A stretch of 64,000 nucleotides of DNA from the NCBI RefSeq assembly GCF_003334815.1, contig NZ_QOWO01000002.1, one strand, 5' to 3'. How positions within the stretch are numbered: the first letter of the stretch is position 1; the number at the start of each line of letters is the position of its first letter. The notes under the pieces are model-generated. The model saw only the letters and a program-made list of their open reading frames with translations. It was not told the DNA's origin and did not search any database. Made by a program: the position numbers and the translations under genes. This DNA is from Escherichia coli. Its GTDB lineage: Bacteria; Pseudomonadota; Gammaproteobacteria; Enterobacterales; Enterobacteriaceae. This document shows, piece after piece, positions 12,239-14,417 of this stretch.

Positions 12239-14417
12239 TTACTCTTTCTCGGAGTAACTATAACCGTAATAGTTATAGCCGTAACTGTAAGCGGTGCTGG
12301 CGCGTTTAATCACACCATTGAGGATAGCGCCTTTAATATTGACGCCTGCCTGTTCCAGACGCTGCATTGACAAACTCACCTCTTTGGCGGTGTTCAAGCC
12401 AAAACGCGCAACCAGCAGGCTGGTGCCAACAGAACGCCCCACGACCGCGGCATCACTCACCGCCAGCATCGGCGGCGTATCGACAATCACCAGATCGTAA
12501 TGGTCGTTCGCTCATTCCAGTAATTGACGCATCCGATCGCGCATCAGCAGTTCAGACGGGTTAGGTGGCACCTGACCGCGAGTAATCACATCAAAGCCTC
12601 CTTTGCCAAAATGCTGGATCACTTTGTTGAGCTCATCTTTACCTGCCAGATATTCCGACAAGCCATGTTCATTACTCACGGTAAACAGGTTATGCGAATA
12701 ACCACGGCGTAAGTCGGCATCAATAAATAACACTTTTTGATCGGACTGGGCGATCACCGCTGCCAGAGTTGAACTGACAAACGTTTTACCACTGTCTGGC
12801 GTCGCACCGGTGATCATTAGAATGTTATTCTCCGTCTCCATCATAGCGAAATGCAGACTGGTTCGTAGCGCACGTACGGCTTCCACAGCAGAATCCGCCG
12901 GGTTATCCACCGCCAGGAAGGGGATATTTTTAGTACGATGGCGCTGCTGATTAGAAAATAAATTTTTCTTACGCAGACGGGTGCGTTTATCCAGCCACTC
13001 GGACATTGGGATAGTGGCATAAACGCTGATGCCGTGCTCTTCCAGTTGTTCCGGGCTTCTACACCACGACGCAACATCGCACGCGCCAGCACGGCACCCA
13101 CAGAAATAAACAGGCCAAGAATAAAACCAAGCACCACGTTCAACGCTTTTTTCGGTTTCACTGGCTGCGGCTGAGTGACTGCCGGGTCGATAATCCGCAC
13201 GTTACCAATGGCACTGGATTTCGAAATACTCAACTCCTGCTGGCGGTTAAGTAATTGCAGATATACCGCACGGCCCGCTTCTACGTCACGACTTAAACGC
13301 AACACTTCCTGTTGGGTGGAAGGCATTGCCGATACCCGCTTATCAGGCGTTTGCGTTCTTGCTCCAGCGTCTGGCGTTTTTCCAGCAGCGCACGATAAGT
13401 TGGGTGATCTTTCTTATACAGCTGGGAGATCTCTGCCTCGCGGAAGGTCAGCTCATTGAGTTGATTATCAACGTTCACAATCTGCTCAAGAACGGCTTTG
13501 GCTTCCAGGTTAAGGTCAACCGAATCGCGCTGCTGGCGATAAACGTTGAGTTTTTCTTCCGCTTGGTCCAGCTCGCTGCGCACTTCAGGTAACTGGCGCT
13601 GTAAGAATTCAAGGCTTTGTGAATCCTGCGCCGCCTGGCGAGCGATATTCTGTTGCAAATAGTTGTTAGCGATGCTGTTCAGAATACGAGTAATCAACTG
13701 GGGATCATCACCAGTCATGGTAAGTTCCAGCATCCCGCTTTCTTTACTGCGTTCGCTAACGGTAAAGGTTTCCTGCAATGCGTTAATCGCTTCCAGTTCG
13801 GTACGCTGGCTCAGGACAAACTGTGTTCCTGGTTTGGCCTTAATGTCCGCGATAGTCAGCGCAACGCCATCTTTTTCCAGACGCTGGCCGACCATACCAT
13901 TGACGGTGAACTCTTCACCTTCCAGTGTATAGTGGCCGTTTTCCCCAACCGTGAGTGTCAGTTGCTGATCCTGACCATTCAGTTGTGGAATATGCATCCA
14001 GCTGATCGCCAGCTCACCTGGTTTTTCTTTGGTTAATCTCGCCCAGCCGCGACCCACAATCGGAAAATACTTCTGCTCAACTATGTCGCGCAGATTCAGT
14101 TCAGCAATGGTTTTACCGAGAATCATGCGCGATTGCAGCAGTTGGATCTCCGGTGCAGACTCGGGCGATGAGTTAGGGATCATATCGCTCAGGCCGCTGA
14201 GAATGGCGTTGCCCTGTTTTTGCTCAACCTGGACCAGAGTATCTGCCTGATAAATTGGTGTGCTTAACAGCGAGTAAGCGACAGCGATCAGCGTGAATAA
14301 CGCGGTCACGCTGATAATAAACTTACGGTGATCCCATAACTCGCCGACCAGACGAAGCAGATCGATCTCATTTTCCTGAGTGCTGCCTGGTGGCGTATTC
14401 ATATTTTTAGTTGTCAT
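12239..14417 (-). pseudogene. etk: BY-kinase (Wzc/Etk-type tyrosine autokinase) disrupted by two frameshifts and one in-frame stop
   Basis: Four consecutive minus-strand ORF pieces (13293..14417, 12841..13326, 12512..13006, 12239..12490) together spell one Etk-like protein: N-terminus MTTKNMNTPPGS..., Walker A GATPDSGKT in piece 3, Tyr-rich tail YSYGYNYYGYSYSEKE in piece 4. Frames shift at about 13343 and 13053, and a TGA stop lies at 12512..12514. Confidence 0.85.

Follow-up and report, generated by a model that had tools for sequence, protein, structure and literature searches.

The window analyzed here is a stretch of 64,000 nucleotides of Escherichia coli DNA (contig NZ_QOWO01000002.1 of RefSeq assembly GCF_003334815.1) that carries the seven-gene unit gfcABCDE-etp-etk between cspH and appA, in the same order and with the same sequence as in E. 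coli K-12 except for lesions in etk and the absence of the insertion sequence (IS) IS1D. The gene of concern is etk, whose product in K-12 and in enteropathogenic E. coli (EPEC), Etk or YccC, is the inner-membrane BY-kinase (PCP-2a) encoded by the last gene of this group 4 capsule operon. In the window, etk occupies 14417..12239 on the minus strand between etp and appA, and a six-frame list of the open reading frames (ORFs) over 11.5-15.5 kb divides it into four pieces. An earlier note, made from the letters alone, had attributed this fragmentation to two 1-nt frameshifts and an in-frame TGA, and base-level alignment to etk of K-12 MG1655 bears the claim out exactly: the two genes show exactly three differences, and K-12 etk given these three edits becomes the window sequence. 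The locus at 12239..14417 is thus orthologous and syntenic to K-12 etk (726 amino acids, aa; WP_000208650.1) and departs from it only by three disabling lesions, and when the etk region was searched by megablast the best full-length matches, K-12 MG1655 among them, measured 2,381 bp against 2,379 bp in the window at 99.9% identity. Judged by its sequence, the window gene is a pseudogene of the BY-kinase/PCP-2a (Etk-Wzc) family and not a functional member of it.

The four ORFs, all on the minus strand, divide the protein as follows. Fragment 1 (13293..14417, 374 aa), which alone keeps the native start codon, encodes Etk 1-358 with the first transmembrane segment (TM1) and the Wzz and WZC_N domains, followed by a 16-aa out-of-frame tail, and ends in ...EQERKRLISGYRQCLPPNRKCCV*. 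Fragment 2 (12841..13326, 161 aa) encodes Etk M365-A455 with the GNVR domain and TM2, then an out-of-frame tail, and contains ...RRGVEARNNWKST...; in public assemblies this ORF was passed over by gene finders. Fragment 3 (12512..13006, 164 aa) corresponds to Etk M472-E635 and ends ...RMRQLLE before a TGA; Walker A (K545), Walker A' and Y574 are present in it, and Walker B and the Tyr cluster are absent. Fragment 4 (12239..12490, 83 aa) begins at a GTG inside DLVIVDTPP and covers Etk 644-726, with a portion of Walker B and with the C-terminal Tyr cluster. The coordinates and peptide read-outs of the earlier note were all correct. Public records list the pieces as separate or hypothetical proteins, and a correct annotation would join the four ORFs of 12239-14417 into one and flag it as an etk pseudogene.

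Three lesions and their recovery from independent data

Lesion 1 is a 1-nt deletion at 13343 on the minus strand (A for AA; etk nt 1075-1076, codon N359), which falls in the periplasmic domain, ahead of both GNVR and TM2, and shifts translation into a frame that runs for 16 codons (ISGYRQCLPPNRKCCV) to a TAA. Lesion 2, again a 1-nt deletion on the minus strand, leaves CCC for CCCC at 13053..13055 (nt 1364-1367, codons A455/P456), six residues past TM2, where the cytoplasmic domain begins. Lesion 3 is the substitution G1908A, which puts TGA for TGG at 12512..12514 (minus strand; W636*), six residues ahead of Walker B and upstream of the Tyr cluster. The earlier note had given codon 636 as Trp in intact Etk, and it is indeed TGG in K-12 etk. 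Direct reading of the sequence at codon 636 found no Dcm site (CCWGG).

Private changes of the window were defined by three-way comparison with K-12, NCTC9100 and 52F4. Both indels lie in short homopolymers (AA and CCCC), all three lesions are confined to 832 bp, and the two etk deletions are the only private deletions in the 64 kb; such a pattern would fit the view that the deletions and the substitution are consensus errors in a poorly supported tract of ~0.8 kb and that the gene is truly intact. This explanation is extremely unlikely, because the same sequence was recovered elsewhere. Identity to the window is 100.000% for a contig of SRR10357323 (21,125 bp) and for a contig of SRR3951465 (12,220 bp), all three lesions included in each case, and these are unrelated Sequence Read Archive runs that were assembled independently. 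Identity over the adjacent 15 kb was also found for a third dataset, GCA_965212685.1, whose longest contig (149,979 bp) holds both the 164-aa etk fragment and the fragment of a second damaged gene, torA; the torA Y190* fragment likewise occurs on the same SRR10357323 contig as the etk lesions. By exact-protein look-up the 374-aa fragment was found on 8 contigs and the exact fragment proteins were recorded on 6-8 contigs, with deposits at NCBI that include CAM9161678.1 and RCR51444.1 (374 aa) and CAM9161758.1 (164 aa). An assembly error is effectively refuted, as it would require that all of these datasets derive from one erroneous reference. The earlier note had named the restoration of the two missing bases and of the TGG codon at read level as the outcome that would overturn it; both SRR10357323 and SRR3951465 assemble instead to the identical triple-lesion sequence, and its preference for decay over a single error is upheld by the agreement of independent assemblies.

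Complete genomes gave a different picture. Probes of 41 nt were centered on each lesion, with every 28-mer seed forced to span the lesion, and none of the three lesions was found with them in 5,426 complete RefSeq E. coli genomes. A probe of the same design was placed over the junction upstream of gfcA (19960..20000, with the junction itself at 19976-19984), where K-12 MG1655 has IS1D (~768 bp) between cspH and gfcA and the window has no IS; it matched 3,201 of the 5,426 genomes, so the negative results for the lesions are meaningful. Its absence from the complete genomes assigns the allele to a natural lineage that is small and close to K-12. The private haplotype is reproduced in at least three independent datasets, and the lesions are biological and fixed in this lineage. 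The gene accordingly has both marks of a unitary pseudogene, namely a syntenic orthologue with disabling lesions and lesions that are reproducible in independent data.

Domain content and predicted loss of the capsule

In the intact protein, for which the repaired window sequence equals K-12 Etk, Pfam places Wzz at residues 16-107, WZC_N at 113-204, GNVR at 368-448 and the P-loop domain at ~534-707, and the transmembrane segments lie at 33-51 (TM1) and 426-449 (TM2). The periplasmic domain that characterizes a BY-kinase/PCP-2a protein is therefore retained as coding potential, and lesion 1 at codon 359 splits this Wzz-type region in the window. The P-loop kinase is also encoded: Walker A (538-546, with K545), Walker A' (563-573), Y574 and Walker B (642-650) were all located in the intact Etk sequence, which matches the kinase-domain structure PDB 3CIO at E = 2e-180 and whose full-length architecture resembles the Wzc octamer 7NHR. 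The TGA at codon 636 parts Walker B from Walker A and A', and the Tyr cluster YSYGYNYYGYSY (residues 711-722) is encoded but lies downstream of all three lesions. What was not found is a continuous frame joining the membrane domain to the kinase, the two frameshifts and the stop leaving four ORFs. Outside the three lesions the window gene is 100% identical to K-12 etk, with the same domain order (Wzz, WZC_N, GNVR, P-loop kinase, Tyr cluster); it differs in that no polypeptide can combine the membrane-anchored part with a complete kinase domain. Each lesion by itself suffices to remove Walker B and the Tyr cluster, and the product translated from the native start (Etk 1-358 plus 16 residues) would have TM1 and part of the periplasmic domain and would be devoid of TM2, the Walker motifs and the Tyr cluster.

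The consequence for the cell can be predicted from work on intact systems. All seven genes of the operon are needed for the group 4 capsule in EPEC, according to a study cited in PMC4368438, and the kinase-dead variant Etk K545M cannot support capsule formation (PMC3366997). Because K545 kinase activity and all seven genes are required, we predict that the lineage has lost the ability to assemble a group 4 (O-antigen) capsule, despite an intact gfc-etp and a promoter without IS1. Strains of the lineage are accordingly predicted to be devoid of group 4 capsule and Etk-null, which is relevant to the reported Etk-dependent polymyxin resistance and also to phage adsorption.

Comparable losses have been described. 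In Shigella flexneri 2a strains 2457T and 301, etk is a pseudogene owing to a 14-bp frameshift deletion at nt 135-148 (PMC4368438). The two cases resemble each other in that a natural frameshift in etk is accompanied by retention of the other g4c operon genes and is read as loss of the O-antigen capsule; they differ in that S. flexneri has one early deletion, whereas the point lesions of the window lineage number three and lie further along etk, in its middle and 3' part, and in that the host of the window allele has a K-12-like, commensal-type background and is not Shigella. In K-12 itself the gfc (ymc) operon is silenced by an IS1 in the promoter (PMC2516531), another route to loss of the group 4 capsule that keeps the coding sequences; the window is without that IS1, and the loss here would proceed through the kinase gene rather than the promoter. 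It was also observed that the capsule operon promoter of the window is in its native state, free of IS1D, while the kinase gene is dead.

Recurrent loss of etk and the history of the lesions

Loss of etk is frequent in the species. By megablast, etk was found in 3,745 of the 5,426 complete E. coli genomes and was missing from 1,681 (~31%). Among close relatives, complete genomes such as WP5-S17-ESBL-10 and AJ1 have etk interrupted near codon 20 by an IS3-family element or IS1; these are independent disruptions in strains 99.9% identical over etk, and they differ from the window in being IS insertions at the 5' end, the window having point lesions and no IS. The W636* product, Etk 1-635, was present on 24 contigs, and ten control truncations at other codons reachable by a single transition were submitted to the same exact-protein look-up. 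Seven of the ten were present, on 1-85 contigs each (W125*, 85; W140*, 48; W475*, 34; Q686*, 19; Q558*, 14; R519*, 10; Q632*, 1), so that the count for W636* is inside the control range. We considered W636 as a nonsense hotspot and rejected it, since the control truncations occur at comparable counts; null alleles occur all along etk.

Two of the three lesions of the window were also met individually in other backgrounds. The product expected from lesion 2 alone was found on two contigs, L010 (ERR4658880) and L011 (GCA_000932215.1, JXWM01000204.1), both of which carry CCCC>CCC with TGG at codon 636 and AA at codon 359; L010 is K-12-like and its contig breaks at the IS1D junction, and L011 has a divergent background. 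The CCCC run (13053-13055 in the window) is therefore a recurrent slippage site in etk. Of the W636* cases that lie within a contig, five have TAG (L012 and L014-L017) and occur on two etk haplotypes, and L013, the only one with TGA, has a haplotype different from that of the window, so that TAG and TGA at W636 are each known from two etk haplotypes. Lesion 1 was seen only in the window lineage and always together with lesions 2 and 3. As a separate observation, several independent short-read contigs (L018-L021) stop exactly at codon 636 (window 12514/12515) with no stop codon visible; three of them have an otherwise K-12-type etk over the stretch covered and differ from the window by the two deletions only. 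These breaks may be assembly-graph branch points from mixed TGG/TAG populations; an IS insertion as the cause of the contig ends is not supported, the IS3 and IS1 insertions lying near codon 20.

The three lesions have to be seen among the 11 differences private to the window, which comprise, besides them, three changes in tor genes, three synonymous changes (rutB, putA and efeB) and two intergenic ones. The tor changes are torT P196L (26277), torC W250S (28262) and torA Y190* (TAC>TAA at 29253-29255, with the change at 29255), that is, two missense changes and one nonsense change within 3 kb; they were reproduced in SRR10357323 and GCA_965212685.1, both of which are 100% identical to the window at this locus across torT, torC and torA. 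The tor locus (25691-31232), 12 kb from etk, is in this respect a second multi-hit locus private to the lineage. The trimethylamine N-oxide (TMAO) reductase system is probably inactivated as well, and the tor pattern looks like ordinary decay after loss of function, which argues for a lineage under relaxed constraint. The torA 1-189 product occurs on 39 contigs and was considered as a sign that Y190* marks an older, wider clade; this was rejected, as most of these contigs simply end within the gene and the genuine Y190* cases fall within the window lineage. All nine private substitutions (12512, 26277, 28262, 29255, 42213, 47701, 50487, 53169 and 54304) are at G:C pairs and none at A:T (6 GC>AT, 2 GC>TA, 1 GC>CG). 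An AT-biased mutation spectrum is usual, and the G:C-only substitutions fit it, yet are rather extreme.

When the 11 private mutations were placed uniformly in 64 kb by simulation, the probability of three or more in etk was 0.006, that of three or more in any gene 0.09, and that of three within 832 bp 0.07. The concentration of lesions in etk thus exceeds chance, and their clustering within 832 bp is marginally significant; purifying selection elsewhere would push surviving mutations into dead genes, which softens these values. We consider it very probable that the window holds a genuine, fixed etk pseudogene that arose under relaxed selection, in which one lesion killed a gene that is often lost and the others accumulated afterwards. 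Under this reading a first lesion would have inactivated a dispensable etk, after which others would have gathered in a gene already dead; mutation recurs at two of the three sites. Several points weigh against it. Neutral decay would predict ~0.5 mutations in 2.2 kb (from 11 per 64 kb, 5 of them synonymous or intergenic) and three are seen; secondary hits should mostly be ordinary substitutions and all three are of the disrupting class; exact-protein look-ups and nucleotide checks found no one- or two-lesion intermediate on the window haplotype, so that stepwise accumulation is something we infer; and the capsule loss that would follow is a prediction, with the O-antigen locus lying outside the window. 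The exact-protein look-ups had suggested a stepwise order from 3' to 5' (W636*, then the C deletion, then the A deletion), and this order was withdrawn after the nucleotide checks because the contigs with the C deletion alone have TGG and other backgrounds and most W636* contigs have TAG or another haplotype. Import of a long-dead allele by recombination was likewise rejected, the rest of etk being 100% K-12-like with no donor single-nucleotide polymorphisms (SNPs).

The excess of disrupting hits is what two other histories would account for, and taken together these are unlikely: that the three hits reflect sustained selection against residual Etk or capsule activity, or else that they stem from one burst of error-prone repair. 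In the former, selection against Etk or the capsule, possibly through exposure of the capsule to phage or masking of surface structures, would have driven one hit after another, since the first lesions were leaky or could revert: tRNA-Trp can read through UGA at a Trp codon and so restore the wild-type protein, and a homopolymer frameshift can be undone by slippage; the order could have been a leaky UGA, followed by a homopolymer frameshift open to reversion and at last by a stable frameshift. Such a history would explain why no hit is silent or missense, more than neutral decay predicts, and it agrees with the recurrence of etk null alleles in many lineages and with a promoter that is not silenced by IS1, so that the gene would otherwise be expressed. 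Selection, however, normally needs one hit per lineage, and the leakiness of UGA and the reversion rates are suppositions; in so large a collection a neutral, dispensable gene should show recurrence just as well, the control truncations being about as common; and the three-hit pattern in tor includes missense changes and looks like plain decay. We regard adaptive reinforcement of the loss as distinctly unlikely. A single clustered event, in which an error-prone repair tract (e.g., by Pol IV or Pol V at a double-strand break) made all three lesions at once, is very unlikely. One-nucleotide deletions in short runs are a classic DinB signature, and the 832-bp span, the lack of a one- or two-lesion intermediate on the same haplotype and the second, looser cluster of three private changes within 3 kb in tor all point in this direction, but the clustering is marginal (P ~0.07), lesion 2 and lesion 3 are each known singly from other lineages and so arise readily by themselves, and missing intermediates are weak evidence when only ~8 samples of the lineage exist. 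If either history were true, a commensal E. coli lineage would offer at this locus a natural case of reinforcement by repeated hits or of a mutation shower, and the tor locus might be a parallel to it. That the frame is instead restored during translation, with full-length Etk made by programmed recoding, is vanishingly improbable: the general leakiness of UGA speaks for it and nothing else does, while it needs two separate -1 shifts in addition to read-through, direct reading found no X XXY YYZ slippery heptamer at either deletion site, and ~3,700 complete genomes encode etk as one uninterrupted frame.

Decay of etk under relaxed selection, the preferred reading, makes the finding real but ordinary, a new allele of a known event, since natural inactivation of etk is common in E. 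coli and Shigella. It adds one data point to the established picture that these bacteria repeatedly discard etk, and it opens no new question.

Capsule operon and genomic background

The earlier note had described the remainder of the capsule operon upstream of etk as intact, and this holds to the base, as gfcA-E and etp have 0 mismatches to K-12: on the minus strand, etp lies at 14437-14883, gfcE at 14871-16010, gfcD at 16056-18152, gfcC at 18152-18898, gfcB at 18895-19539 and gfcA at 19646-19951. From yccX to dgcT the window is collinear with K-12, and the remaining K-12 genes compared in it are without frameshift or internal stop. It has an extra G relative to K-12 at 50892, and its efeU (~50786-51616) matches that of NCTC9100 and 52F4, where the gene is annotated as intact; K-12 efeU is the well-known frameshifted pseudogene. 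Beyond IS1D and the G in efeU, the window differs from K-12 at 16 other positions.

Over 25 kb, the complete genomes nearest to the window were 52F4, NCTC9100 and NCTC9087, each ~five mismatches short of identity. Descent from MG1655 or a laboratory-engineered origin was rejected on account of the missing IS1D, the intact efeU and 8 lineage SNPs in common with NCTC9100 and 52F4. Compared with the window, NCTC9100, the closest complete relative, has an indel of one base in gfcC (18707) and another in putP (50180), and RefSeq flags both genes as frameshifted pseudogenes; these indels may be homopolymer errors of long-read sequencing or real lesions.

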